IMG/VR virus record: IMGVR_UViG_2541047680_000009
Span: 1 to 37,464 of that record
Length of the DNA stretch: 37,464 bases
Direction: 5' to 3' (one strand)
DNA from: a virus
Taxonomy: Duplodnaviria > Heunggongvirae > Uroviricota > Caudoviricetes
Shown here: positions 1 through 21,709 of the stretch, in pieces
How positions within the stretch are numbered: the first letter of the stretch is position 1
Layout of the letters: every line of letters begins with the position of its first letter
Made by a program: the position numbers and the translations under genes
Notes under the pieces: generated by a model
What the model was told of the DNA's origin: nothing
Database searches by the model: none
What the model saw: only the letters and a program-made list of their open reading frames with translations

Positions 1-69
1 CTGCAGCGGCGTTGCCGGTGATTTACTGAAAATACCCTGCGGTTTACGGTTAATGGTCAGAGTTACCAT
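1..69 (-). CDS. 5' end of an unidentified protein-coding gene that runs off the window start
   Basis: Minus-strand ATG at 69-67 with GAGG about 12 nt upstream; reading frame stays open to position 1 (MVTLTINRKPQGIFSKSPATPLQ...). Too short for a family call. Confidence 0.3.
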   Translation of the reverse strand, partial: MVTLTINRKPQGIFSKSPATPLQ

Positions 70-664
70 CAATTTTGTTACCTCGCGCTGTCAATGGAAG
101 TAGTACCTCATCCGATATCTGAAAATGTTTTCCGGTGGATGTTACAGCGAATTTCATGTAAGACATGTTGTTGTCGGTATTGTTCAGTACTGTGCGTTGT
201 GAGCGTATTCGTTATCAGACAGAGGGGCAGGGAACAAACGTCAGAGGTTAAGGATATCCGGGAACAAATGGCGTAAACGGACATCTCAGTGCCTGAGAAA
301 CAGTACAGGTCAGGCCATCATGGCCTGCAAACAGAGCCCTGGCGACCCCGTGGCCGAAAACGAAACAATAACCCGCGCGCAGTGCGAGGAATCCGGATGT
401 GAAGCAATCAGCAGGTAATATTAATGGCAGGACCAGCAGGTTCTTTAAACAAACGAACATGCTGTAATTGATATTTTGCTTATTGTATTTTCTTTTTAGT
501 TATTAAATTAATTTATTTACGAAAAATTTTCTGCAGATACAGGATGGGAATTCAGGGTGTCATCACGCCTTATGATGACACCCTTCCCCTGGTTGTGGAA
601 AACCGAAGGATATATCAGGTTCAGCAACAAAATCAGTGAGCTGAAAGATACCAGTCCCCCAGCT

Positions 665-1684
665 TCAGCAGCTTTCACGTAAACATAAACAGGGCTCAAT
701 GAATATCTGATTGCTCCAGTTACCTTCTTTAATTCGTTCCAGCAAAACATTTCCTGCTTCCAGACCAATTTTCCTGTGAGGAACGGCCATTGTTGTTAAT
801 GATGGTTGGCAAACTTTGCTGACGTCACTGTCACCAAATCCTACTACGGCGAGCTCGTCTGGAACTTTGATCCGTCTTCGTTGACATTCATAGAGAACAC
901 CGCAGGCTAACTCATCTGACACACATACCAGGGCATCCAGTTCCGGCCATGCGAGCAAAAATTCCGGTAGTTGTGATGCTCCGGTGGAAAAAACAGGTGG
1001 CAGAGCAGCGTTAATAACACGGTTGGGAGACATATGATGGCGTAACATAGCTTTATACCATCCCTGTAAATGCTGCTGAAAGATCCACTGTTCCTGGTTA
1101 GCGCATAGCAAACCGATATTCTGATAACCACGTTGTACCAGCATATCCGTCAGCTCGAACATTGCTGCAACATTATCAATACCAATGTTGATATCTATCG
1201 GATCAGTACGAATGGCACCGATTTCTATAACAGGAATCGAGGCATTTTTGAGCAAGTGACGCACGGTACTATTATGCTCAACACTAAGCAAAATTGCTGC
1301 AGCGATATTAGAAGCCAGCAGGGTTTCCAGCAGTTTTTCTTCTTGTTCCAGACGATGGCGTGACTCAGCCAGGATTATTTGATACCCCGCTGGTTGTAGC
1401 ACATGTTGCAGCCCGGCAAACATTTCCGTGCATCCCGCTTCAGCCAGGTTTGGCACGACCATTGCGATCGTGTGTGAAGATGCCGATGCCAGTGCGCTTG
1501 CAGTGAGGTTGGGCATATACCCTAATTCATTAACTGCGGCTTCAATCTTCTCCCTCAATTTATCTGAAACTTGTTCGGGAGTGCGTAACGCTCTGGATAC
1601 AGTCATTGTGCCAACTCCCGCGAGTTGCGCGACATCAGCAATAGTGACTTTACCTGTACTACGACGTTTTCGGGTTATTGCCAT
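665..1684 (-). CDS. LacI-family transcriptional repressor (GntR/IdnR-like sugar-acid regulator type)
   Basis: 339-aa ORF; N-terminal HTH VTIADVAQLAGVGTMTVSRALR typical of LacI/GalR family, followed by a periplasmic-binding-protein-like sugar-binding core; AGGA RBS 6-7 nt upstream of the ATG at 1684; divergent from the PTS operon. Confidence 0.9.
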   Translation of the reverse strand: MAITRKRRSTGKVTIADVAQLAGVGTMTVSRALRTPEQVSDKLREKIEAAVNELGYMPNLTASALASASSHTIAMVVPNLAEAGCTEMFAGLQHVLQPAGYQIILAESRHRLEQEEKLLETLLASNIAAAILLSVEHNSTVRHLLKNASIPVIEIGAIRTDPIDINIGIDNVAAMFELTDMLVQRGYQNIGLLCANQEQWIFQQHLQGWYKAMLRHHMSPNRVINAALPPVFSTGASQLPEFLLAWPELDALVCVSDELACGVLYECQRRRIKVPDELAVVGFGDSDVSKVCQPSLTTMAVPHRKIGLEAGNVLLERIKEGNWSNQIFIEPCLCLRESC

Positions 1685-1816
1685 ACAAAATCCTGCTCAG
1701 CGACTACATATGGAGATCTTTTATTACTTATCATCAACGGCTTCCTGCACTGCCAGTAGCAGAGTATACCTCTTAATATCTGCCATAAGTCTGGATTTAA
1801 TCAGTGAAATCTATTT

Positions 1817-1864
1817 TGATAGCGCTATCACAAATTCGAACAATACCTCCTGATAGCGCTATCT
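1817..1864. promoter_or_regulatory. Two LacI-type operator palindromes in the divergent control region (TGATAGCGCTATCA at 1817-1830; TGATAGCGCTATCt at 1851-1864)
   Basis: Perfect 14-bp palindrome with central CG, repeated 34 bp downstream with one mismatch, located between the regulator start (1684) and the PTS EIIA start (1936). Confidence 0.55.
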
Positions 1865-1935
1865 TTGTGATATTGATCGCAGATATACCGTCGTTACTTG
1901 AATACATTCTGGTCATATAAATAAGAAATTAGGGG

Positions 1936-2385
1936 GTGGGAGTGCTTAATATCTGGCTTTCTGATTCAACAATCGCATTACGAAAGAATGCCGCAACCTG
2001 GCAGCAGGCATTAGATATCTGTGCCAGACCGTTACTGGATGCAGAGATAATTACGACGGATTATCTCAGTGCGATAAAGACACAACATGAAAAACTGGGG
2101 CCTTATTATGTCCTGGCACCCGGGCTGGCCATGCCGCATGCCCGACCAGAAGAAGGGGCAAAAGGATTAGGTTTATCATTATTAAAACTTGAAGAAGGTG
2201 TCAGTTTTCATACAGAGGAATTTGATCCTGTAGATGTTATCATTTTACTTGCCGCACCAGACAAACACAGTCATATCGAAATGATATCTGCACTGGCTGA
2301 GTTATTCTCCAGCGAAAAAGATTTACATGAATTGCATCAGGCTCGCAATGTGGAGGAAATAAAAAAGATAATTTCACGGTTCTGA
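1936..2385 (+). CDS. PTS EIIA component, L-ascorbate (UlaC/SgaA) family
   Basis: 149-aa ORF with the motif [20 protein letters not shown], matching the conserved UlaC-type EIIA active-site region ([20 protein letters not shown]). Start ambiguous: GTG at 1936 or 1942, RBS AGGGGGTGGG. Confidence 0.85.
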   Translation: [149 protein letters not shown]

Positions 2386-2463
2386 TTACATTATAAATTC
2401 AGTCTTTTCACAACATTGCGCCGTTGCGTGATGGGACTTCTTCAACTTAAAATGGTGAATATA

Positions 2464-2736
2464 ATGAAAATTATGGCTATTTGTGGCTCAGGGCTTGGTA
2501 GTAGTTTTATGGTCGAAATGAATATTAAAAAAGTTCTGAAAAAAATGGATATAGAGGCGGAAGTGGAACATTCCGATCTCTCATCAGCAACGCCAGGGGC
2601 TGCCGATTTATTTGTGATGGCCAAAGATATTGCTGCCAGTGCCAGCGTACCGGAAAGTCAGTTGGTGGTTATCAACAACATCATTGATATTAATGAACTC
2701 GAAACGCAACTGCGTAACTGGTTAGCAAAACAATAA
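2464..2736 (+). CDS. PTS EIIB component, L-ascorbate (UlaB/SgaB) family
   Basis: N-terminus MKIMAICGSGLGSS matches the phospho-cysteine motif of UlaB-type EIIB (AVCGNGQGSS); ORF open from 2416, alternative ATGs at 2452 and 2473. Confidence 0.8.
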   Translation: MKIMAICGSGLGSSFMVEMNIKKVLKKMDIEAEVEHSDLSSATPGAADLFVMAKDIAASASVPESQLVVINNIIDINELETQLRNWLAKQ

Positions 2737-2752
2737 CCTTAATTGAAGCGAG

Positions 2753-4147
2753 GTGGATATGTTTATCCTTGAAACGCTGAATTTTGTTGTTGATATACTT
2801 AAAGTGCCCGCGATACTGGTCGGCTTGATTGCCTTAATTGGTCTGGTTGCCCAGAAAAAATCTTTTTCAGATGTTGTTAAAGGTACAATTAAAACTATTC
2901 TCGGCTTTATTGTACTGGGCGGTGGTGCCACTGTTTTGGTTGGTTCGTTAAATCCTCTTGGGAGTATGTTTGAACATGCCTTTAATATTCAGGGCATCAT
3001 TCCGAATAATGAGGCTATTGTTTCTATTGCGCTGGAAAAATATGGCGCATCGACGGCCCTTATTATGGCATTTGGTATGGTGGCGAATATTATTGTTGCC
3101 CGCTTTACCCGCCTTAAATATATCTTCCTGACCGGACACCACACATTTTACATGGCCTGCATGATTGGTGTGATTCTGACAGTGGCTGGTTTTGAAGGTA
3201 TATCACTGGTCTTTACCGGTTCTCTTATTCTGGGACTTGTGATGGCATTTTTCCCGGCATTAGCACAACGCTATATGAAGCGTATTACGGGGAATGATGA
3301 CATTGCTTTTGGTCACTTTGGCACTCTGGGATATGTACTTTCTGGCTGGATTGGCAGCGTGTGCGGTAAAGGTTCCCGCTCCACCGAAGAGATGAATTTG
3401 CCCAAAAATCTGAGCTTCCTGCGCGACAGTTCCATCTCTATTTCTCTTACGATGATGGTGATTTATCTGATCATGGCGATCAGTGCTGGTCGTGAGTTCG
3501 TTGAAAGCCAGTTCAGTGGTGGTCAAAACTACCTTGTCTACGCCATCATAATGGCCATCACCTTCGCTGCTGGTGTATTTATTATTCTGCAAGGCGTGCG
3601 TTTAATCCTTGCTGAAATAGTTCCGGCATTTACCGGGTTTTCAGAAAAGCTGGTGCCGAATGCCCGTCCGGCCCTCGATTGCCCGGTTGTGTATCCGTAT
3701 GCGCCAAACGCAGTGTTAGTTGGTTTCTTGTTTAGCTTTTTTGGCGGTCTGGTAGGGCTATTTTTGTTGGGACAGATGAAACTGGTGTTGATTCTTCCGG
3801 GTGTCGTTCCTCACTTTTTTACCGGGGCGGCTGCTGGCGTATTTGGTAACGCTACGGGGGGACGTCGTGGCGCAATGATTGGTGCTTTTGCGAATGGCTT
3901 ATTGATTACCTTCCTGCCAGTACTGTTATTGCCGGTTCTTGGGGCGATAGGCTTTGCTAATACGACCTTTTCCGATGCAGATTTTGGTGCTGTCGGCATC
4001 GTCCTCGGAAACCTGGCACGTTATCTCTCACCTTTTGCCATCACCGGACTTGTAGTAGCGCTATTTGTGCTGCTGGTTGCCTGGAACATTTTCGCCAGTA
4101 ACAAAATCGCTGCCAAAGCGCAGAAGAAGAGTGGAGCCAAATCATGA
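2753..4147 (+). CDS. PTS EIIC permease, L-ascorbate (UlaA/SgaT) family
   Basis: 464-aa polytopic membrane protein; conserved blocks GTIKTILGF, LTGHH, IILQGVRL, LDCPVVYPYAPNAV align with UlaA; stop overlaps the next start (ATGA). Confidence 0.9.
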   Translation: MDMFILETLNFVVDILKVPAILVGLIALIGLVAQKKSFSDVVKGTIKTILGFIVLGGGATVLVGSLNPLGSMFEHAFNIQGIIPNNEAIVSIALEKYGASTALIMAFGMVANIIVARFTRLKYIFLTGHHTFYMACMIGVILTVAGFEGISLVFTGSLILGLVMAFFPALAQRYMKRITGNDDIAFGHFGTLGYVLSGWIGSVCGKGSRSTEEMNLPKNLSFLRDSSISISLTMMVIYLIMAISAGREFVESQFSGGQNYLVYAIIMAITFAAGVFIILQGVRLILAEIVPAFTGFSEKLVPNARPALDCPVVYPYAPNAVLVGFLFSFFGGLVGLFLLGQMKLVLILPGVVPHFFTGAAAGVFGNATGGRRGAMIGAFANGLLITFLPVLLLPVLGAIGFANTTFSDADFGAVGIVLGNLARYLSPFAITGLVVALFVLLVAWNIFASNKIAAKAQKKSGAKS

Positions 4148-4974
4148 ATGTTAAAGAATTGACTCAATTTGCACGGGATATACGTATCCAGACGCTTAAA
4201 TCATTAACTCATCTCGGCTTCGGTCATTATGGTGGCAGCATGTCGGTTGTGGAAACGCTGGCAGTGCTTTATGGCGCTGTAATGAAAATTGATCCTGCTG
4301 CTCCCGACTGGCCTGAGCGTGACTATTTTATCCTGTCCAAAGGACATGCCGGACCTGCTCTCTACAGTACTCTGGCGCTGAAAGGCTACTTTCCACTGGA
4401 AGAATTAAGCACCTTAAATCAGAACGGAACCCGCTTACCAAGTCATCCGGATCGGCTAAAAACGTGTGGTGTTGATAGCACCACAGGATCGCTGGGGCAG
4501 GGGATATCCATTGCCGGAGGGATGGCGCTGTCGCATAAACTGGCGGGGCGCAAGAATCGGGTTTTTTGTATTGTCGGCGATGGCGAACTTAATGAAGGCC
4601 AATGTTGGGAAGCTTTCCAGTTTATCGCGCATCATCGTTTGAATAACCTCACTGTGTTTGTGGACTGGAACAAACAGCAGCTTGATGGTCAACTGGATGA
4701 AATTATTAATCCATTTGATTTGGAAGGAAAATTCCGGGCTTTCGGTTTTGATGTCGTGACAGTGAAGGGCGATGATATTGAGGGCTTGTTGAATGTAGTT
4801 AAACCTGTCCTGCCAGCTGAGGCCAGACCGAGAGTGGTCATTCTCGATAGCATTAAAGGGCAGGGGGTGCCGTGTCTCGAGCAACTCAGTAATTCTCATC
4901 ACTTACGCCTCACAGAAGAGATGAAGGGGACGCTAAACGAAACAATTCGCCAACTGGAGGCTATGCATGATTAA
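4144..4974 (+). CDS. Transketolase, N-terminal (TPP-binding) subunit
   Basis: 276 aa; motifs SKGHAGPALY and GSLGQGIS...GDGELNEGQCWEA typical of the thiamine-diphosphate binding half of split transketolases; translationally coupled to flanking genes. Confidence 0.9.
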   Translation: MNVKELTQFARDIRIQTLKSLTHLGFGHYGGSMSVVETLAVLYGAVMKIDPAAPDWPERDYFILSKGHAGPALYSTLALKGYFPLEELSTLNQNGTRLPSHPDRLKTCGVDSTTGSLGQGISIAGGMALSHKLAGRKNRVFCIVGDGELNEGQCWEAFQFIAHHRLNNLTVFVDWNKQQLDGQLDEIINPFDLEGKFRAFGFDVVTVKGDDIEGLLNVVKPVLPAEARPRVVILDSIKGQGVPCLEQLSNSHHLRLTEEMKGTLNETIRQLEAMHD

Positions 4975-5920
4975 TCTCGCACCGGCAGGACAAAAAGACA
5001 GCATTGAAATGCGCAAAGTTTATGCAGATTTTATCGCGCAACAGAGTAAAAACGTCAGTTCTGTCATTGCTCTTGAGGCTGATTTAATGAGTTCCATGGC
5101 AATGGACAGCGTGGCGCAGGATTATCCAGATCACGTCATTAATTGCGGCATTATGGAAGCCAATGTTATCGGCACAGCTGCAGGGCTGGCCTTAACCGGG
5201 CGCAAGCCATTCGTGCATACCTTTACCGCATTTGCCAGTCGTCGCTGTTTTGATCAACTCTTTATGTCGCTTGATTACCAGGGCGCTAACGTCAAAGTTA
5301 TAGCTTCTGATGCGGGTGTTGCTGCTTGCCACAATGGCGGAACACATATGTCATTTGAAGATATGGGAATTGTGCGCGGGCTGGCGCATTCGGTGGTGAT
5401 GGAGATGACAGATGCCGTAATGTTCAGCGATATCTTGCGTCAACTCGTTGCACTGGAAGGATTTTATTGGATTCGTACCATTCGGAAGCAAGCAGCGAGT
5501 ATTTACGCACCAGGTACAACCTTTACAATTGGCAAAGGGCAGGTATTACGTGAAGGTACGGATGTCACCTTAATTGCTAATGGCATTATGGTGGTGGAAG
5601 CCCTGGAGGCCGCACGTCAACTTGAGCTGGCTGGGGTAAGTGTAGCGGTGATTGATATGTTTACGCTCAAACCCGTTGATCGGATGTTAATTAAAAATTA
5701 TGCCGAAAAAACAGGACGGATCGTAACATGTGAAAACCATAGTATTCATAATGGATTAGGTTCAGCGGTTGCTGAAGTGCTTGTAGAAACTTGTCCTGTG
5801 CCCATGCGTCGGGTGGGGGTTAAAGAGCGGTATGGCCAGGTTGGAACTCAGGACTTTTTACAGAGAGAGTACGGGTTAACCGCGCAAGATATTGTGGCGG
5901 CAGCCAGAGAGCTATTGTAA
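4967..5920 (+). CDS. Transketolase, C-terminal (pyrimidine-binding) subunit
   Basis: 317 aa; transketolase pyrimidine-binding and C-terminal domain organisation; start overlaps the N-terminal subunit gene by 8 nt. Confidence 0.9.
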   Translation: MINLAPAGQKDSIEMRKVYADFIAQQSKNVSSVIALEADLMSSMAMDSVAQDYPDHVINCGIMEANVIGTAAGLALTGRKPFVHTFTAFASRRCFDQLFMSLDYQGANVKVIASDAGVAACHNGGTHMSFEDMGIVRGLAHSVVMEMTDAVMFSDILRQLVALEGFYWIRTIRKQAASIYAPGTTFTIGKGQVLREGTDVTLIANGIMVVEALEAARQLELAGVSVAVIDMFTLKPVDRMLIKNYAEKTGRIVTCENHSIHNGLGSAVAEVLVETCPVPMRRVGVKERYGQVGTQDFLQREYGLTAQDIVAAARELL

Positions 5921-6108
5921 TTCATGGAGTTTGTTTACCATTCTGTTTTTCTTAAAAGTGAGTGTCTGTGCGGTCACTAAACTCGGTAATAAAGCAGTTC
6001 ATTGCAGGATAAGAAGCGTTTGGTTGTGTCGTTTTACCGTAAGAACCGACCGCCGTATGTATCCATTAAGCCAGTATTGGTAACGTAGGTGCCCACCTTT
6101 TCAAACTG

Positions 6109-6291
6109 GTGGGCGCCTGTTATGGAGCAAAAACATTATCCGCAGAACCCCGCAGATCATTTTCAAATGAGTTAAACTTCAAATGGTTAAACTGGCTTTG
6201 CAACCAGGAGCCTCTGTTGCCCGTATTGCCCGGGAACACGATATCAATGATAACCTCCTGTTCAAATGGCTCAGACTCTGGCAGAACGTAA
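6109..6291 (+). pseudogene. Relic of an IS3-family transposase OrfA (HTH region), frameshifted and truncated
   Basis: Two overlapping frames give ...RRSFSNE... and ...KLQMVKLALQPGASVARIAREHDINDNLLFKWLRLWQ, resembling the N-terminal HTH of IS2/IS3-type OrfA (such as ...[25 protein letters not shown]); no intact transposase follows. Confidence 0.45.
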
Positions 6292-6375
6292 GGTAAAGGG
6301 AGATGAAAAAGGCAATAGCAGAACTGAGTGACAGTGAAACCATTCTGGCGTACAGGGTTGGATGGTGAAACTGAT

Positions 6376-6407
6376 AAAAAACCCCCTCTGAAATTCTGTC
6401 AGAGGGG
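6376..6407 (-). terminator. Rho-independent terminator (minus strand) with no recognisable upstream gene
   Basis: 9-bp perfect stem CCCCTCTGA/TCAGAGGGG (6383-6407), 7-nt loop, followed on the minus strand by TTTTTT (6381-6376). Confidence 0.45.
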
Positions 6408-6624
6408 CTAGTCAATAAGGGAATAATATTCAACATGAAGATGTCTTCTGGGAATGTTTATATAGCAAATGCTTTCACTCCGGTAATTAATTTCCGTGAT
6501 TAACTGCTTTCGATCAATAAAGGAATTGCAAAAGTGTGATCTTGTTCACGACATCGTGGATAATAATATGCCTGATGTCTGAATCCGGAAACAGTGCTCT
6601 GGCGGGTTTCATGTGAAGTTGACG

Positions 6625-6658
6625 GATAAAAAATCCGCACGACCAGACAGACGTGCGG
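6625..6658 (-). terminator. Rho-independent terminator (minus strand), orphan
   Basis: Stem CCGCACG/CGTGCGG (6635-6641 / 6652-6658), 10-nt loop, followed on the minus strand by ATTTTTTAT. Confidence 0.4.
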
Positions 6659-7146
6659 TTTACGAAATTCGTAACAAGAGGCTTTTCTACGGATCACGTG
6701 GTGCGTGCCACGTGAAATTTTTGTAGCGCAAAATGTGTGATGTGTAAATACAAGGAAGGAAAAAAGTTAAATCGGTGGAAGTCCATACCTGCCACATGTA
6801 CGTCTGCATTCCTCGTTTTGAACAGAATTCTCACCAGACATCGTGAATTTCTCATTCAATCATCAGAGATATTACCCAGGATTTTTATTGTTTTGTGATA
6901 TCAGCAGTGCAGGTATACAGACGTTAAAGTAATCAGGTTTATTATAACCACCTTTACAAAGTTGTATATGTTTATAATTTAATGATTTTAATGCCAGTCG
7001 TTTTCTGCTGCTTAAATTGAGGTCGCATATTATACACAATAATATTCCTGGCATTATTAAATTAATAAGAGAGGATTCTTATCACTGTATTTTTGCTCCG
7101 CACTACCGTTCTGGCTGGTGAAGTAATAATACAGGAGAATAACAGA

Positions 7147-8241
7147 ATGCTTAAAAGACGTGATGCTTTTTTAAAGAAAAGCGCGCTGGCAGTGAGTGTG
7201 GCCCTGCTGCTCTCATCTCAGGCTTTGGCTCATAAAACAATTACTGATTCAACGGCGGGTATTATCTGGATTGATAATGGCACTCAGTCACTTGAAAGTG
7301 CAAGTGTGATTGACAGAAATGGAAATGCTAACGGTGATGGTAGTGTTACTGGAAAAAACTTTGCTGTTGGTTCCGATGCAATAATTTGGGATGCGGATAA
7401 ATCCATGGCAACAGGAAATAAGACAGCTGTTTTTAATGCAGACAACAGTGTCGCTCTGGGGTATGGCTCTCAGGTGAATGGAGAAAGCAATGTACTTTCT
7501 GTAGGGGCCGGTCCTTCAGGATATGGATTTTCAGTTGATGGTGCACCGGAAACCCGCCGGATTATAAATGTTTCAGATGGTGTTAAGGATAGTGATGCGG
7601 CCACAAAAGGACAGATGGACAACGCCATTGCAGGTGCTGTACGGGTGTCGGGGGATGCCCTGCGCGGTGAGATAGGAGCTGTCTACCGTGATGCTGTTTC
7701 TCATACTGACAGTCAGGTCACAGCAGTACGTGATGAACTGAAGGCAGAGGGAGACAGTCTGCGCGGTGAGATAGGCGGTGTATACAGAGATGCCCGTGCT
7801 CATACTGACAGTCAGGTTACAGCAGTACGTGATGAACTCAGCAGGGATATTATTGCAGTCACATCGGCAGCGGTGGCGCAGACGGATGCAGCAATAGCCT
7901 CAAATACAGCAGCGATAAGGAATAACAGTCATCGTCTGGATTTGACGGAAGCCTGGCAGAAGATGGCGACAGAGAGAATGAATAATATGCAGGAGCAGAT
8001 TAAAGAGAACCGGAAGGAGTTAAGGGAGAGTGCAGCCCAGAGCGCGGCACTGGCCGGTCTTTTCCAGCCATACAGTGTTGGAAAATTTAACGCGACAGCA
8101 GCCGTTGGTGGTTACCGTGATGAGCAGGCCATTGCGGTGGGCGTGGGCTACCGTTTCAGAGAGAATGTGGCAGGAAAAGTTGCAGTTGCTGCAGGTGGGT
8201 CATCCGCATCGTGGAATGCTGGTGTGAATTTTGAGTTCTGA
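7147..8241 (+). CDS. Trimeric autotransporter adhesin, YadA/Eib-like (signal peptide, coiled-coil stalk, C-terminal beta-barrel anchor)
   Basis: AGGAG RBS 8 nt upstream of the ATG at 7147; signal peptide [28 protein letters not shown]; central heptad-rich repeats; C-terminal anchor ending ...AVGVGYRF...GVNFEF as in YadA-family translocator domains. AT-rich upstream region. Confidence 0.8.
7651..7848 (+). repeat. In-frame tandem duplication, 2 x 99 bp (33-aa coiled-coil unit) inside the adhesin gene
   Basis: Copy 1 at 7651-7749 and copy 2 at 7750-7848 are roughly 80% identical; they encode [33 protein letters not shown] and [33 protein letters not shown]. Confidence 0.85.
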
Positions 8242-8264
8242 CAGGTCAGGATTTAGATATCTGT

Positions 8265-8283
8265 CCCGGGGGGAGTCCCCCGG
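8265..8283 (+). terminator. GC-rich perfect palindrome just after the adhesin stop (possible terminator or protein-binding site)
   Basis: CCCGGGGGAgTCCCCCGGG, 24 nt downstream of the adhesin stop codon; no strong T-tract, so terminator function is uncertain. Confidence 0.35.
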
Positions 8284-8302
8284 GATATAATGAGGTACAG
8301 AG

Positions 8303-8758
8303 ATGCTGGATATAATCCTGGCGACGAGAGATATTTATTTTGAAAAAGCCCTGCGAGAGGTATTTGGAACCGTAAGCAGTCGAATCAGATATATAGAAGA
8401 TGCCATATCAGACAGAAGAAGGGTGCAGTCAGGCAGGTCATTCAGATATTATTTTGTATTCTGTGATGATGAGTATACAGATATTGTTCGTATTCTTTTT
8501 ACCGGAGAGGCCTGCTGTATTCTGAATAAGTCGATGCTGAATCTGAGAGCGGCCGGAGGTGTGTTGACGCTGGAAGAGCGCAGAGCGGTACTGAACCGGT
8601 ATTACAGAGGTTTAAGTATTGCGGAGATTACAGAAGAGACGGGGCAGAATGACAAGACGGTATACGGTCATCTTCGTCGTGCACTGCAGCGGTCTGGATT
8701 CCGGAAGGGGCGTTTTATAAAGGGGAGAGAAGTGACGGGGGATTCAGGTGTTGAATAA
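8303..8758 (+). CDS. Small LuxR/GerE-type HTH transcriptional regulator
   Basis: 151 aa; C-terminal LTLEERRAVLNRYYRGLSIAEITEETGQNDKTVYGHLRRALQR fits the LuxR-type HTH pattern (LT.RE..VL......G.S..EIA.....S..TV..H); GAGG RBS 8 nt upstream. Confidence 0.6.
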   Translation: MLDIILATRDIYFEKALREVFGTVSSRIRYIEDAISDRRRVQSGRSFRYYFVFCDDEYTDIVRILFTGEACCILNKSMLNLRAAGGVLTLEERRAVLNRYYRGLSIAEITEETGQNDKTVYGHLRRALQRSGFRKGRFIKGREVTGDSGVE

Positions 8759-9114
8759 TGTATCTTATATTGTGATATCGGTGCTGCTGCTGTTATTTTT
8801 TGTTGTATTTGTGACGAATGGTTAAGAATAAAACATGAGTTGGTGATTATCAGGACAGGTTGCTTGTATATGAAGATAACAAAGGCGGCATTTATTTTTG
8901 CGCTGTCAGTGTGGAGTGTTGCTGTGATATGTCTTTTATTATTTGTACTGATTGTTCTGGGATAGCCATAGTGAAATAAAAAGCTGTCTGAATTAAATTA
9001 TTTTGCACACATGTTTTAATTCTGCACTGAATTCAGAATGGGTAATCAGTGACCGTCCTGACGGTCACTTTAAAGAAAAGGCATTTACACAGAATTACTG
9101 ACAGGCTCTGGCTG

Positions 9115-9453
9115 TCATTCGGCCGATGAACAGTTGCTTAAGACAGGATTATCATTCCCTTCCACCAGATTGGCTTTTTTACCTTTTGTGTACAGTTTAT
9201 ATGAGTATCTTTTATTGATGGCTTCGTAATTGGCTCCGGAGGCCATTTTCATTAGCTGCATAGGTATCATCTCATCCATCTGATTAATCACTGCATATGA
9301 GTTCCCAGCAGTGGTGTTGATATAGACCACCTCCATTGTCTTATTTCCATTACAGACATAAGCTGTTTTTGAGATTTCTTTTGTGGCAGCGGAGGATACC
9401 ATACTGTTGCTAACAAGAATGAGTGCAAGGACGGGAGAAGAGTATTTTTTCAT
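9115..9453 (-). CDS. MliC/PliC-family inhibitor of C-type lysozyme (secreted)
   Basis: 112 aa with N-terminal signal peptide; conserved MliC-like pattern Y.C...........V.Y.......A....................SGA.Y.......Y.....KG..A............C (YVCNGNK...VVYINT...MASGANYEA...YTKGKKANL...SNC); AAGGAG RBS 7 nt upstream. Confidence 0.6.
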   Translation of the reverse strand: MKKYSSPVLALILVSNSMVSSAATKEISKTAYVCNGNKTMEVVYINTTAGNSYAVINQMDEMIPMQLMKMASGANYEAINKRYSYKLYTKGKKANLVEGNDNPVLSNCSSAE

Positions 9454-9958
9454 AATAACTCCTTCTGTAGGTTAAAAAAACAGGTGTTTGATCAGAATTA
9501 TATTAATAATTCATTCATCAGAAAAAAAGGTTTTTGTTATAGCAATAATAATGAGCACAATTGCTTGTGAAACTGGTGCCATTTTACGGTTGCTTAGTGA
9601 TCAGACATGAGATAAATGAAGGGGGATCCGTGAGATAAATAACGAATTGGAGTGGGTTAACATGGGTTCTGGTGAACAGAACTGAAATTCTTTTCCGCTA
9701 TACGATAGATAAGTCGGGCATTGAAATCATCCTTCCTGGCAACTTAGAATCGAGTTTGCTGAAACATGACCCGCAACAAAAAGGATGATTCCAATGACTA
9801 CTCAAAACAATAAGCATGATAGCCTGGATTACTCAGAAAAGCCCAAAAGCAAGCACATCGTGACGTTCGAGCGCGATTCCGGTAGAAAAGGAGAATCGTC
9901 TTCCTCTGCCAATAAAACCACTATGCCGGCAGCCCCTGCCCCAGGGAAAAAATAAACA

Positions 9959-12944: not shown

Positions 12945-13217
12945 TCAGTGTTTCCGGTCGACGGTGATGTTCAGGCCGCCTTCTGCAGTGGTTTCCATCC
13001 GGTACGGCACATCGTGCTCTGCCGTGTGGGTGAGTGTGTTCACCAGTACCTGCAGGGCAGCCGCCTTTCCGTTGGTCGCCACAATGGCCTGAGCGGTCAT
13101 GCTGATTAGCGCCGTCAGGACGTGCTTCACATCGGTGAGGTCGCGGCATTCACACTCGTTGACATAGTGTTCAACAAGGGTTCGGGTGCGCTGTCGTGCT
13201 TCCTGTGGGGTAATCAT
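12945..13217 (-). CDS. Hypothetical protein (90 aa)
   Basis: ATGA start/stop overlap with the upstream zinc-ribbon gene; no recognisable motif. Confidence 0.45.
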   Translation of the reverse strand: MITPQEARQRTRTLVEHYVNECECRDLTDVKHVLTALISMTAQAIVATNGKAAALQVLVNTLTHTAEHDVPYRMETTAEGGLNITVDRKH

Positions 13218-13408
13218 TGCGAGTCCTCCCTGTCAGGGCGGGAGAATTCCATGACGGGCACGTCTGCCGAAAAATGCTGACTGCAGTACGGACAGACCAG
13301 GGTGACGCGTACTGCAGGTACGTGGTACTTACCGGACATCACGGCGATGGCGCTGTGAAAACGCAGGGCTGTTATATCCCTCTCGCACTGAATACATTTA
13401 AATATCAT
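13214..13408 (-). CDS. Small zinc-ribbon protein (64 aa)
   Basis: Two Cys pairs (CIQC ... CPYC) spaced for a Zn ribbon; GAGGAG RBS 9 nt upstream. Confidence 0.45.
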   Translation of the reverse strand: MIFKCIQCERDITALRFHSAIAVMSGKYHVPAVRVTLVCPYCSQHFSADVPVMEFSRPDREDSQ

Positions 13409-18756: not shown

Positions 18757-18856
18757 CGTTGTCTCCTTTGTTGATGCAATGATGTTTGCCTTATGTGTGA
18801 TAGATTATGGTGCAGATTACCTCACCAGTCAACTTAAAGAGTGCAGAAAAACTCAC
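18757..18856. promoter_or_regulatory. Divergent promoter/operator region between the repressor and the early (ner-like) operon
   Basis: 100-bp AT-rich intergenic region between the divergent starts; contains repeated AGATTA elements (gatAGATTAtggtgcAGATTAcc). Confidence 0.5.
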
Positions 18857-19195
18857 ATGATCGGGTTACGTATTAAAGAAGAAAGAGAGCGTCTATCTCT
18901 TACACAGCAAGGGTTGGCTGATGCTATAGGTGTGGCAAAGAGAACTTTCATTGATTGGGAAAAAGATCGCACTTCTCCTACTGCAGTGCAGTTATCTGCA
19001 CTATCAGAAATCGGTGTAGATATTTTGTATGTAGTTACTGGGGTGCGGAGTCAGCCTGTTGTTGCACCTTATGTGTCACAAGAAAAGAAAGAGTTAATGG
19101 ATGCATTCGACGAAATGAGCCCCGAACAACGGAGGGCAATTCTTGAGGTCGGCAAAGTCTTCATTCAACCCAAACCAAGCAAACTCGCAGGCTGA
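18857..19195 (+). CDS. Prophage repressor, XRE-family HTH (c repressor analogue)
   Basis: MIGLRIKEERERLSLTQQGLADAIGVAKRTFIDWEKDRTSP is a canonical XRE/Cro-C1 HTH; divergent from the early operon as for Mu c. The ORF track's longer N-terminal extension (from 18704) would overlap the ner-like gene and is rejected. Confidence 0.75.
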   Translation: MIGLRIKEERERLSLTQQGLADAIGVAKRTFIDWEKDRTSPTAVQLSALSEIGVDILYVVTGVRSQPVVAPYVSQEKKELMDAFDEMSPEQRRAILEVGKVFIQPKPSKLAG

Positions 19196-19280: not shown

Positions 19281-19313
19281 ACCGGAAAGCATTGTGCTTT
19301 CCGGTTTTGTTTC
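19281..19313 (+). terminator. Rho-independent terminator after the repressor gene (shared with the convergent Dam gene)
   Basis: 10-bp stem ACCGGAAAGC/GCTTTCCGGT with 5-nt loop followed by TTTTGTTTC. Confidence 0.65.
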
Positions 19314-20076
19314 AGAAGTTGCAGATTACCAGTTCACGGCGCGGCGTAGATTTCCCCGCCAGACTGTAGTTGATGTTCACTGTCTGTATGTTCAGTCCAG
19401 TGAACACCTCGCGCATCTGTGGGATATCGTTCACCGAAATTATCATTTTTCCTCTGATGCACCGGGCCAGCTCTGCCAGCCGCGAGTAGTTCCCTTCAGG
19501 AAAATCCACACCATAGCCTTCCGTACCCAGGTACGGTGGGTCGCAGTAGAACAGTGTGTGCGGACGATCATAACGCTCAATGCACTGTTGCCAGTCCATG
19601 TGTTCTATGACTGTTCTGGAAAGCCGCAGGTGTGCTGCTGACAGTTCTTCTTCAATACGCAGCAGGTTGAAGCGTGGCGGGGATGTGGTGGAGGTACCGA
19701 AGCTGTGCTCTGCCACCTTGCCGCCAAACGCCTGCTTCTGAAGGTAGTAGAACCGTGCCGCACGCTGGATATCCGTCAGTGTTTCTTCCGGGGTGATCTG
19801 CAGCCATTTGTAGATCTGACGGCTGACCAGCGCCCATTTGAACTGGCGGACAAATTCTTCCAGGTGATGCTTTACCACCCGGTACAGATTCACCAGTTCA
19901 CCGTTGATATCATTGATGACTTCGATCTTGCCGGGTGTCTTAAGAAAATAGAGCGCTGCTGCCCCACAAAACGGCTCCACATAACATTCATGCGCCGGAA
20001 ACAGCGGCAGGATGTGTTTTGCCAGGCGACGTTTGCCACCAATCCATGGAACGATGGGTAATGTCTTCATTTTCAT
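19312..20076 (-). CDS. DNA adenine methyltransferase, Dam family (D12 class N6-MTase), orphan
   Basis: Motifs WIGGKRRL (N-terminal), EPFCGAAA (AdoMet binding) and DPPY (catalytic) in the order typical of Dam; no adjacent restriction endonuclease. Alternative start at 20070. Confidence 0.85.
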   Translation of the reverse strand: MKMKTLPIVPWIGGKRRLAKHILPLFPAHECYVEPFCGAAALYFLKTPGKIEVINDINGELVNLYRVVKHHLEEFVRQFKWALVSRQIYKWLQITPEETLTDIQRAARFYYLQKQAFGGKVAEHSFGTSTTSPPRFNLLRIEEELSAAHLRLSRTVIEHMDWQQCIERYDRPHTLFYCDPPYLGTEGYGVDFPEGNYSRLAELARCIRGKMIISVNDIPQMREVFTGLNIQTVNINYSLAGKSTPRRELVICNF

Positions 20077-20117
20077 AATCTGTAAGCCTTTTACAATTAT
20101 TAAAAATATGGCAGGCT

Positions 20118-20211
20118 AGTCTGGTCTCGCGAGACTGACTGAACCTCGGTCGGCTCACAGCCACTTCTGTGGGACGATGGCCAGCCCGGTGGGTCCGAAG
20201 CACCGGGCTGG
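20118..20211. other. Structured intergenic region upstream of the Dam gene: perfect 12-bp palindrome GTCTCGCGAGAC (20124-20135) and an 11-bp-stem hairpin (20181-20211)
   Basis: Hairpin CCAGCCCGGTG-ggtccgaag-CACCGGGCTGG with perfect 11-bp stem; palindrome flanked by AGTC/GACT. Lies in the 191-nt gap between the 71-aa gene and the Dam gene. Confidence 0.5.
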
Positions 20212-20267
20212 TCGTTCTTTCATGATGCGGCAGGGATAGTGGGATTTCTGTTAATGTGGTTTAGGGA

Positions 20268-20483
20268 TTATCCGGGGCGATTTTCTGACCTTATCCGGTC
20301 CAGGGCATAAGTAATACCTTCTGCAAAAACAGAAGTATCAAACTGCTTTTGTATTCCCTGAAAATGAAAAGCGGCACGACAGACACTCAGTTCTCCGCGA
20401 TGTAACCGGATAATATCTTCCAGAACATTGTTCACTGCTTCAGCACGGCGCTGATGTTCTGTTAACGTTAATCGGGGATTCAT
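20268..20483 (-). CDS. Hypothetical protein (71 aa), part of the accessory module
   Basis: Strong RBS TAAGGAG 6 nt upstream of the ATG at 20483; no recognisable family (possibly small DNA-binding). Confidence 0.5.
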   Translation of the reverse strand: MNPRLTLTEHQRRAEAVNNVLEDIIRLHRGELSVCRAAFHFQGIQKQFDTSVFAEGITYALDRIRSENRPG

Positions 20484-20886
20484 GATGCACTCCTTAAATG
20501 ATGATTTTTATGCACTCACCGGCAAAATATTCTGCCGATTACTGAACACGCATCCGGCACCTCAGGTTTTGATTTATTCTGGTTTTTTCGATATCCCGGA
20601 CCAGGTTGATCACGACCAGAAAAAGTGCCGGTATTTTATTGATACGCTGATATGGCTTCGGGATAACAGCTATATTCGTTACTCTCAGTTGCTGGCTGTG
20701 GGAGCGGCTGATGTCGTCCTCACGGAAAAAACGCTCCGTCTGCTCAATGCCACGCCGACCCTTCTGCAGCCCCGGCCCGCACCATTTAAAGAGTCACTTC
20801 TGGATGCAGTAAAAACCGGTGAAAATGCAGTCATCGCTGAATGCGTATCCCGGATTATGCGTTACGTGTTTAATGAACGTAAGTGA
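20482..20886 (+). CDS. Hypothetical protein (134 aa), part of the accessory module; reality of this ORF uncertain
   Basis: 405-nt ORF filling the gap between two minus-strand genes; its ATG lies back to back with the 71-aa gene's ATG (2-nt overlap on opposite strands) and its 3' end overlaps the 247-aa gene by 25 nt; only a weak RBS (GGGGA). Confidence 0.35.
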   Translation: MMHSLNDDFYALTGKIFCRLLNTHPAPQVLIYSGFFDIPDQVDHDQKKCRYFIDTLIWLRDNSYIRYSQLLAVGAADVVLTEKTLRLLNATPTLLQPRPAPFKESLLDAVKTGENAVIAECVSRIMRYVFNERK

Positions 20887-21605
20887 GGTTTATCCGCTGT
20901 CTGCATAATCCCGATAGCCAGTGCGAGGGGAAGTAATTCCGGGGAAACTCTTTCAAACAGCGACTCCCATTCTCCTCTCGCCATCACTCTGTCCAGCCCG
21001 CCCCCCAGTTGCATTTCAGCAATCTTCCTGATTTCCCGGAACAACGCCGCTTTGATCTCTTCGTGCTCAGCTTTATTTTCCGGTGTCAGAATGTATTCGT
21101 CGAAGAACCGGGGAGGCTGGTTAACGGGGAGCGTGTTCACCGGGATGTGTTCCTGTTTCCCGTACTTCGGGGCAGAAAAACATTCTGTTGGCTGACCGGT
21201 GAGTTTACGTAGCTCCTTCATGAGCAGCTCCTGATCGTAAACTGTCATCAGTGCCGCAATGGTGGCATGCAGTGCATCGGGCAGTATCCAGGGTTGCCGG
21301 CCCGTGGGGCATATAACATCCAGCAGCTCATTCGTCCGACAGATACGCTCCTCGCCGTATGACAACAGGCCCTGTCCCGTGTATTCCTCCAGCCTGATCA
21401 CTGTGCCACCCCGTGGCTTCTGCCAGGTCGTCAGATCATCGCCACTCATACGCCGCTCATCATCTACGTCTGCAGCATCGACAATGACGCTGCCCCCGAA
21501 TTCCTGTTTCACCACTTCCTCTATCCGCGCCAATATGTAACTTTTACCGCTGCCCACAGGACCGGACACGGTGACAGTGATGACCGGATTCAGTGTCTGC
21601 GTCAT
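20862..21605 (-). CDS. P-loop NTPase of unknown function (247 aa)
   Basis: Walker A GPVGSGKS at residues 15-22 followed by a hydrophobic strand ending in acidic residues (VIVDAADVDDE, Walker B-like); about 150-aa C-terminal domain with no motif I recognise; GAGGAG RBS 7 nt upstream; divergent from the late operon. Confidence 0.6.
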   Translation of the reverse strand: MTQTLNPVITVTVSGPVGSGKSYILARIEEVVKQEFGGSVIVDAADVDDERRMSGDDLTTWQKPRGGTVIRLEEYTGQGLLSYGEERICRTNELLDVICPTGRQPWILPDALHATIAALMTVYDQELLMKELRKLTGQPTECFSAPKYGKQEHIPVNTLPVNQPPRFFDEYILTPENKAEHEEIKAALFREIRKIAEMQLGGGLDRVMARGEWESLFERVSPELLPLALAIGIMQTADKPHLRSLNT

Positions 21606-21709
21606 ATCGTATTCTCCTCTGTGAATAATTCATCGTTTATCCTGCACATCCCGTATCCCCGGCTCTCTTAACGCGCTTTAAAATCCTTCGCGCCCTGTAT
21701 TTGTGATGC

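Follow-up and report, generated by a model that had tools for sequence, protein, structure and literature searches.

Introduction

Mu-like prophages that lack mom carry adenine methylases behind the com gene, and DNA modified by these methylases withstands many restriction enzymes, as Drozdz et al. showed in 2012 (PMC3299994). The same work noted ORF48 of phage B3 as a different lineage whose activity was untested, and as lying outside the 1000 best matches of Hia5 (PMC3299994). Here we describe the locus of a predicted orphan adenine DNA methyltransferase, together with a conserved structured RNA element that adjoins its start codon, in a 37,464-nt stretch of viral DNA (IMG/VR virus record IMGVR_UViG_2541047680_000009, positions 1 to 37,464; hereafter the window, a term that covers the whole stretch). 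The methylase had been pointed out in an initial annotation made from the sequence alone, which missed the structured element at 20077-20222.

The gene has already been catalogued in another strain. Forde et al. (2015, PMC4659465) named M.EcoMIV (EC958_1101), from prophage Phi2 of the Escherichia coli ST131 strain EC958, and described it as a D12-class type II orphan. Its transcription in LB was significantly below that of dam, and single-molecule real-time (SMRT) sequencing of EC958 gave no methylation motif that could be assigned to it (PMC4659465). According to the same authors, REBASE lists M.EcoMIV as a putative asymmetric-site enzyme, and none of its homologues above 65% identity has a recognition site there (PMC4659465). 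The methylase gene is an ordinary prophage orphan, and the RNA element is the new part. What our analysis adds is a placement of the enzyme with B3 ORF48, in a com-mom-like setting, and a widely conserved, undescribed RNA motif that accompanies the methylase start codon, if it does not also control it.

Results

A conserved structured RNA element abuts the methylase gene

The similarity that the window shares with Klebsiella phage KP12 and with Phi06_2974 B covers the methylase gene and about 150 nt upstream of it, and ends sharply at 20222-20226. Among complete E. coli genomes the upstream segment is present in exactly the same 556 genomes, at 606 places, as the methylase, and RefSeq annotates nothing within it. 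Eighteen sequences spanning 12 genera were aligned, and the RNAalifold structure of this alignment (Table 1) has 94.9% of its cells paired, against 32-49% in slid controls, with 13 pairs changed on both sides. A covariance model based on this alignment (the PhiKM row was left out of alignment A3) finds the element in 90 of 100 related loci, always on the methylase strand. Seventy of these hits end at the start of a methylase and at least four more at the start of a Com-like gene; several others are not classifiable.

The genomes concerned are enterobacterial or belong to Burkholderia, Paraburkholderia, Cupriavidus, Chromobacterium, Nitrosomonas, Methylophaga and Francisella, and viral contigs carry the element as well. 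Phage phi1026b has it between Rz and gp26, Bise carries it too, and in B3 it ends at the com start. In the alignment of all 90 sequences, 91.7% of cells are paired (slid controls, 34-46%), 30 of the 32 pairs show compensatory changes, and none of 500 shuffles reaches the observed value. The nucleotides of the three-way junction are highly conserved. The element is a conserved structured RNA motif that extends from beta- to gamma-proteobacteria and is absent from Rfam.

Known riboswitches and ribozymes are ruled out, as Rfam 15 gives no match at gathering score anywhere in the window and no credible match at E <=10 within 19900-20600. Several other readings of parts of the segment were also set aside. 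The palindrome GTCTCGCGAGAC occurs once in the window, which excludes a repeated operator, and the idea that the 'TGAAAGAAC' direct repeats are a target-site duplication was replaced by the covarying P1 helix. Nor is the element a leader of the lysis operon, given that a conserved late-promoter motif stands between it and the holin gene.

Public annotations run over the element in several records. The methylase N-terminus is stretched across it to give proteins of 284 aa (PhiKM, locus L002, 20148-21002) and 320 aa (P0001), and in B3 (locus L211, 297-522) the tiny ORF45 and ORF46 are drawn immediately before com, where the element (422-566) covers ORF46 and the last bases of ORF45. These extended N-termini and tiny ORFs are probably annotation artefacts.

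Which strand carries the RNA

Most helices of the element pair equally well on both strands, and the question of which strand is transcribed must be addressed with the features that do not. The 7-bp extension of helix H2 is paired in 86-87% of cells when read antisense to the methylase and in 48% when read in the sense direction (slid controls, 12-53%), with interconversion of U.G, C:G and U:A pairs. For 67 non-redundant rows, RNAalifold returns -37.8 kcal/mol (covariation -7.3) antisense and -23.6 kcal/mol (-3.4) sense, from an alignment that was made with the sense model. Moreover, a U/C-rich tract follows directly after P1 on the plus strand in most loci (the minus-strand rows of the tail listing were disregarded). 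In other lineages, A/T-rich hexamers resembling a -10 box occur at a position similar to that of the promoter match in the window and are poorly conserved; they are made of H4 bases on the plus strand.

Several observations weigh against an antisense RNA. No well-conserved promoter for the element was found on either strand. A conserved AGCCU segment has two possible partners, the AGGCU of H3 and that of the Shine-Dalgarno sequence; the second pairing, which would sequester the Shine-Dalgarno sequence, is formed in 87% of cells (slid controls, 8-69%) and fits a sense leader. CUGUGAGYC can pair with GGCUUACAG through G.U pairs that are possible only in the sense strand. Finally, in B3 and phi1026b the element lies inside late operons that run in the same direction. 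The AGCCU:AGGCU and CUGUGAGYC:GGCUUACAG pairings show almost no double substitutions.

An intact methylase with a Dam-type fold

Judged from its sequence and from a structural model, the methylase is a real and intact D12-class enzyme with the two-lobe fold of Dam, DNA-binding lobe included. The open reading frame (ORF) begins with MKMKTLPIVPWIGGKRRL and contains VPWIGGKRRL, VEPFCGAAAL and YCDPPYLG. Its product matches Pfam PF02086 (D12 class) over profile positions 1-248 of 253 (E 5.9e-29; 102 bits, cutoff 22), PHROG 56 (E 6e-101) and, from end to end, the PADLOC type II methylase model (E 6e-113). The initial annotation had called a complete D12-class N6-adenine methyltransferase from the motifs WIGGKRRL, EPFCGAAA and DPPY, and the presence of all three within a nearly full-length PF02086 match bears this out.

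EPFCGAA, motif I for binding of S-adenosylmethionine (SAM), occupies residues 34-40, and the catalytic motif IV, DPPY, lies C-terminal to it at residues 179-182. When the window protein is aligned with 69 representatives of 36-62% identity (70 sequences in total), G13, K15, E34, G38, D56, E158, D170 and D179-P-P-Y182 are invariant. Because the catalytic and SAM-binding residues are kept across all 70, the gene is not a pseudogene; inactivation, which the initial annotation had named as something to look for, is contradicted by the intact ORF and the invariant DPPY. The family comprises 677 cluster representatives at E <1e-30 and is common in phages. An AlphaFold model built from the 70-sequence alignment has a mean predicted local distance difference test (pLDDT) score of 94.1, and its best Foldseek match in the PDB is E. 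coli Dam (template modelling (TM) score 0.80-0.84, E 1e-17), with DpnM and T4 Dam also matched. A sequence search with the methylase likewise finds E. coli Dam directly (E 3e-14).

The name Dam and the question of target site

The name 'Dam' should, on sequence grounds, not be read as meaning GATC. The protein narrowly passes the NCBIfam model TIGR00571, 'dam subfamily' (117.4 bits, cutoff 114.85), and fails to reach the GATC-specific Dam equivalog NF008152 (68.3 bits, cutoff 441). K9, L122, R124 and P134 are reportedly the residues through which E. coli Dam contacts GATC, as described in 2006 by Horton and colleagues. Aligned with E. coli Dam (2g1p) by HMMER, the methylase has P10, K120, A122 and S132, respectively, in their places. 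The hairpin motif common to Dam and DpnM (NGLxR...FNVPxGRY) is absent, and residues 118-137 vary within the family, except for F117 and a [FY]G pair. Single-residue equivalences in this hairpin are uncertain, since MAFFT and HMMER place it differently, and neither alignment of the family shows a conserved arginine equivalent to R124. The designation 'Dam-family' holds only loosely, for the fold and for TIGR00571, and its GATC implication is not supported by the equivalog score and the replaced contact residues.

Avoidance of GATC proved uninformative as a clue to specificity, with observed/expected ratios of 0.59 in the prophage (9700-37464) and 0.60 in the host flank (1-9600). CTAG is nearly absent from both. 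From the model scores and the replaced residues, we infer that the methylase probably does not recognize plain GATC but some other short motif, or else a relaxed one. Three other methylases considered as relatives were rejected. M.BceJIV (GTWWAC; crystal structures) is not among the PDB sequence matches, and M.EcoGV and M.EcoPA8orf6770P are not close relatives, the phiPA8 enzyme being structurally nearest to METTL3/METTL14 (MT-A70-type) and M.EcoGV being described as highly similar to it (PMC10810198).

Relatives behind Com genes and in late operons

The closest relative so far described is ORF48 of B3, a Mu-like Pseudomonas phage (AF232233), which is annotated 'Dam modification methylase' and is 63% identical over its full length, variable recognition region included. 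ORF48 overlaps ORF47, annotated 'Com translational regulator', and this module sits among late head and tail genes. Com (PF10122) is also encoded just upstream of the methylase, with the RNA element on its far side, in loci L079 and L058 (E 1.6e-19 and 1.4e-14). Gp26 of Burkholderia phage phi1026b, which is 65.5% identical, follows the holin-lysozyme-Rz genes at the end of the late operon. The adenine methylase of phiE125, gp27, should be near phi1026b gp26, and phiE125 DNA reportedly carries N6-methyladenine (m6A), as described in 2002 by Woods and colleagues.

In two Paludibacterium denitrificans loci (L048 and L061, approximately 3818-4750), Com and the methylase form one ORF of 310-312 aa (MNTPLEDIRCGHCGRKL...PLVPWIGGKRRLAK), which is either a natural fusion or an assembly frameshift.

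Beside the methylase of the window there is no com gene, and the RNA element directly abuts the methylase ATG. By analogy with its relatives, the methylase is best read as a mom-type lytic-phase anti-restriction enzyme of the B3 ORF48 lineage that here stands without com. Its expression is probably late, as it lies beside the lysis operon here and its relatives lie inside late operons in B3 and phi1026b. With B3 ORF48 placed behind a Com gene, like mom in Mu, protection in the lytic phase is the most likely role, and not epigenetic control in the lysogen.

The lysogen data available for the same gene are in line with this. M.EcoMIV is identical to the window methylase at 251 of 254 residues (99%), and EC958 Phi2 is the same BcepMu-like prophage with the same methylase neighbours. 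The published EC958 results speak directly against a strong role of the enzyme in laboratory-grown lysogens. The suggestion of the initial annotation that the enzyme could alter host and prophage gene regulation in lysogens is for this reason disfavoured, and its other suggestion, protection of phage DNA from restriction, is the best-supported reading in view of the Com-associated relatives and the late-operon position in phi1026b.

The prophage and the neighbouring genes

From about 9.7 kb onwards the window is a BcepMu-like transposable prophage, whose relative PhiKM is classed as a Bcepmuvirus. Features of the locus are collected in Table 1.

Table 1. Coordinates of the methylase gene, the parts of the RNA element and the surrounding features in the window
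Feature	Position	Strand	Remarks
Orphan D12-class N6-adenine DNA methyltransferase (predicted)	19312..20076	-	254 aa; identified by Pfam, NCBIfam, PADLOC, model and homologues
Conserved structured element, ~150 nt	20077..20222	probably +	abuts methylase start codon
Shine-Dalgarno AAGG within AAAAGGCUUAC	20087..20090	-	~11 nt before ATG at 20076; near-invariant in enterobacterial relatives
Helix H4	20089..20106		UUUUUA...UAAAA here, UUUUCA/UGAAAA in relatives; directly 5' of Shine-Dalgarno
Helix H3	20114..20145		long irregular hairpin, including perfect palindrome GTCTCGCGAGAC (20124-20135)
Three-way junction	20141..20217		closed by P1; holds H1 and H2
P1	20141-20144 with 20214-20217		GAAC/GUUC here, covarying with GAGC/GCUC elsewhere
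Helix H2	20149..20178	+	CACAG/CUGUG core and 7-bp extension pairing well only on + strand
Helix H1	20181..20211		11-bp GC-rich stem CCAGCCCGGUG / CACCGGGCUGG; variable loop; compensatory changes
U/C-rich tail TTTCATGAT	20218..20226	+	right after P1; conservation with relatives ends here
Sigma-70-like promoter match TTTTCA-16-TACAAT (9/12)	20070..20097	+	would start an RNA near 20104; overlaps methylase start codon; weakly conserved in relatives
HTH_3/XRE-family gene, putative prophage repressor	18857..19195	+	RefSeq start 18737
Intrinsic terminator of repressor-like gene	19281..19313	+	11-bp stem 19281-19305; tail TTTGTTT (TTTGTTTCAG)
Early operon	before repressor-like gene	-	Mor ... ExeA-family, DDE-type transposase, DUF3102, IclR-like, 62-aa helix-turn-helix (HTH) protein
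Gene order past the repressor-like gene			methylase (-); ORFs of 71 aa (-), 134 aa (+) and 247 aa (-); then holin, transglycosylase and late genes (+)
Putative late (lysis operon) promoter motif CTTAACGCGCTTTAAAAT	21667..21684	+	upstream of holin

The repressor-like gene points away from the early operon and is, as had been annotated, convergent with the methylase, from which a gap of 116 bp separates it. This gap holds one hairpin. Only the plus strand carries its T-rich tail, TTTGTTTCAG, which runs into the stop codon of the methylase. A terminator-like site for the minus-strand methylase transcript was looked for and none was found, and a bidirectional terminator serving both genes is ruled out by the single T-tail. 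The terminator that the two genes had been thought to share is only partly right because that tail serves the repressor strand alone.

None of the three ORFs of 71, 134 and 247 aa flanking the methylase has a nuclease, Pfam, NCBIfam or PADLOC match, and they match only PHROGs 4490, 2266 and 3787, which are of unknown function. The place of the methylase between the early/repressor region and the holin gene is kept in KP12 as well as in 17 prophage loci of enterobacteria, where the flanking ORFs are swapped or gone. Because the neighbours are unassigned and are replaced or missing in relatives that keep the methylase, we conclude that there is no cognate endonuclease, and a restriction-modification partner or defence system among them is ruled out on the same grounds. 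The methylase thus remains a phage-borne orphan with no adjacent endonuclease, as first annotated. The 247-aa protein carries the P-loop GPVGSGKS. The ORFs at 20227-21660 look as though they were inserted between the RNA element and the late promoter, and the compact loci of Phi06_2974 B, Photorhabdus and Xenorhabdus are without them.

The motif CTTAACGCGCTTTAAAAT (TTAAC-N4-TTTAAAAT) occurs once in the window and is kept upstream of the holin gene in 16 loci; elsewhere it lies near 3806-3829 (-) in L010-L022 and at 5892-5908 in L004. In compact relatives it is 25-45 nt beyond the RNA element. The motif probably serves this group of phages as the late promoter, that of the lysis operon.

Among 5426 complete E. 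coli genomes, 556 carry the methylase locus. An identical copy of the prophage in E. coli DA33135 adjoins a truncated gspL. This type II secretion gene lacks its N-terminus (L001, 10309-10500) at the position that corresponds to the left prophage junction of the window, around 9.6-9.7 kb. The truncation at the left end suggests that the DA33135 copy inserted into gspL.

Two observations concern the early region. A sigma-70 promoter match, TTGACT-17-CATAAT (10/12), at 18804-18832 (-) faces the early operon, divergent from the repressor-like gene, and likely marks the early promoter/operator region. An early ORF of 64 aa (approximately 13214-13408, -) has two CxxC pairs (MIFKCIQCER...LVCPYCSQ), by which it is taken to be a zinc-ribbon protein; by Pfam it is not a Com homologue.

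Discussion

On balance we think it probable that the locus encodes a stand-alone, mom-like m6A methylase that is off in the lysogen, acts against restriction in the lytic cycle, recognizes a site other than GATC and is gated by RNA. The predicted SAM-dependent N6-adenine DNA methyltransferase would do for this prophage what mom does for Mu. It would be kept essentially silent in the lysogen and be produced in the lytic cycle, modifying phage DNA as it replicates and so enabling the progeny to withstand restriction in the host that they enter next. Leaky expression in the lysogen would be blocked through the RNA element at the start codon. The agent would most likely be a cis-antisense RNA of about 120 nt, made from the plus strand and complementary to the methylase leader, that ends in a Y-shaped, terminator-like domain formed by P1, H2, H1 and the U-rich tail. 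Alternatively, a fold of the leader itself might hide the ribosome-binding site. Three points must be held against this proposal. The analogy with mom rests on relatives, since the present prophage has no com beside its methylase. Loss of the E. coli Dam contacts leaves GATC recognition possible, as the readout residues of T4 Dam and E. coli Dam partly differ; a transition between two GATC recognition mechanisms in these enzymes is cited in PMC8541194. Finally, the 90-sequence alignment of the element was fitted to the model structure, which inflates its pairing counts, although the margin over the controls is still large.

It is unlikely that the enzyme is a true GATC-specific paralogue of Dam that keeps rapidly replicating phage DNA fully methylated, for example as a way round MutH nicking or DpnII-type restriction, or to set the timing of phage promoters that depend on GATC. 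Its best matches among solved structures are all GATC enzymes and it passes TIGR00571, and the prophage methylases M.EcoVT2Dam and M.EcoGV have been reported to methylate GATC (PMC6602927); extra GATC activity would also be invisible in a Dam+ lysogen, consistent with the lack of an assigned motif in EC958. This must be set against the failed equivalog, the replaced contact residues, the missing hairpin motif in a region that varies within the family, the REBASE entries (PMC4659465) and a GATC depletion that is equal in prophage and host. Still less probable is an epigenetic regulator of host and prophage promoters acquired by lysogenic conversion, or a stabilizer of lysogeny. Such functions have precedents, as 933W depends on host Dam for stable lysogeny, and lysogeny in Burkholderia cenocepacia H111 requires the prophage methylase gp51 (preprint 10.1101/2020.03.09.983379), and the methylase does adjoin the immunity region, convergent with the repressor gene. 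However, the far lower expression of M.EcoMIV than of dam and the lack of an extra motif in the EC958 lysogen argue otherwise, as do the relatives found in late operons or behind Com, and a conserved element of such elaboration, placed where translation starts, points to tight repression. We give very little credence to a decaying or non-functional moron, or to a product that acts on RNA instead of DNA. The gene is silent in EC958, and a prophage 'DNA adenine methylase' of the MT-A70 family methylates 16S rRNA when bound to its partner (PMC10810198), but the intact ORF is kept in 556 genomes, the catalytic residues are invariant in a family of 677 representatives, and the whole protein adopts a Dam-type fold that includes the DNA-binding lobe; the m6A reported for phiE125 DNA also speaks against these readings.

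With regard to the RNA, we lean modestly towards an antisense transcript of the methylase leader, made from the plus strand of the window. A sense 5' leader of the methylase or com-methylase mRNA, in which a riboswitch-like or protein-binding junction would sequester the Shine-Dalgarno sequence, is a distinctly less likely possibility that nevertheless has several points in its favour. The element is attached to the start codon and follows the strand of the gene across unrelated phage contexts, its junction nucleotides are highly conserved, it is embedded in co-directional late operons in B3 and phi1026b, and both the anti-Shine-Dalgarno pairing and the G.U pairs with GGCUUACAG suit this arrangement. 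On the other side, the H2 extension pairs poorly in the sense direction, energy and covariation are better antisense in spite of an alignment made with the sense model, the U/C-rich tract follows the structure on the antisense strand only, and the anti-Shine-Dalgarno pairings show hardly any double changes. Whatever probability these two arrangements leave belongs to an RNA made from both strands or to some other arrangement. Going further, and with somewhat less than even confidence, the element may represent a new and widespread family of regulatory RNAs, likely cis-antisense and otherwise riboswitch-like leaders, gating mom-like, non-GATC and possibly relaxed methylases, alone or behind Com, in phages of beta- and gamma-proteobacteria, both Mu-like and lambdoid ones. 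The initial annotation was correct in what it observed and partly right in its interpretation: orphan status stands and protection is favoured, whereas the GATC site implied by 'Dam-family', regulation in lysogens and a shared terminator were overstated.

Roughly a tenth of the complete E. coli genomes carry the methylase gene, the pandemic clone ST131 among them. DNA in lysates from such prophages may be modified in a way that alters the passage of phage or transduced DNA across restriction barriers. The RNA motif is kept from Escherichia to Burkholderia and is seen by neither Rfam nor genome annotation, and annotators currently run the methylase ORF, or tiny ORFs, over it. It offers a simple, testable case of how a phage might silence a potentially harmful DNA-modifying enzyme in lysogens, and it links the classical com-mom paradigm of Mu with a much larger group of phages.

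Comparison with described systems places the locus among several of them. M.EcoMIV is the same gene in another strain, with no substantive difference; the upstream RNA element of EC958, which is not mentioned in PMC4659465, is 86.8% identical to that of the window. E. coli Dam, DpnM and T4 Dam share with the methylase their fold, motif order, DPPY and the N-terminal GGK and EPFxG SAM elements, but are only 17-26% identical to it, and the GATC-contact residues and the Dam equivalog score are not shared. The FluMu-type enzymes Hia5, Hin1523 and Nma1821 resemble it in having a Dam fold, a mom position behind com and a recognition domain that has diverged from Dam. Their subfamily differs in that Hia5 finds Dam-type enzymes only at the third PSI-BLAST iteration, at about 15% identity, and non-specific activity is a property of those three enzymes that we do not carry over to the window methylase family.

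If the plus-strand reading is right, the RNA would resemble the cis-antisense RNAs sar of P22, OOP of lambda, and those of EcoRI and Eco29kI, in which a short, terminator-ended RNA lies opposite the 5' end of a potentially harmful gene. No sequence or Rfam relation to antisense RNAs of the P22 sar/lambda OOP type was found, and the window element, known here from sequence alone, differs from the known examples in that its 3' domain is a three-way junction and not a simple hairpin. Like com-mom of Mu, the window gene would serve DNA modification in a transposable phage, be expressed late and under tight control, and shield progeny DNA from restriction; Com homologues precede members of the methylase family. 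Mom, however, shows no sequence relationship to this enzyme, and the base that it produces is N6-(1-acetamido)adenine instead of m6A (PMC3299994); Mu has no counterpart of the structured element. B3 ORF48 comes nearest to the window locus, as it too belongs to a Mu-like transposable phage and has the same structured element upstream (E 2.5e-5); in B3, however, Com stands between element and methylase, whereas in the window the methylase has no com and is divergent from the lysis operon.

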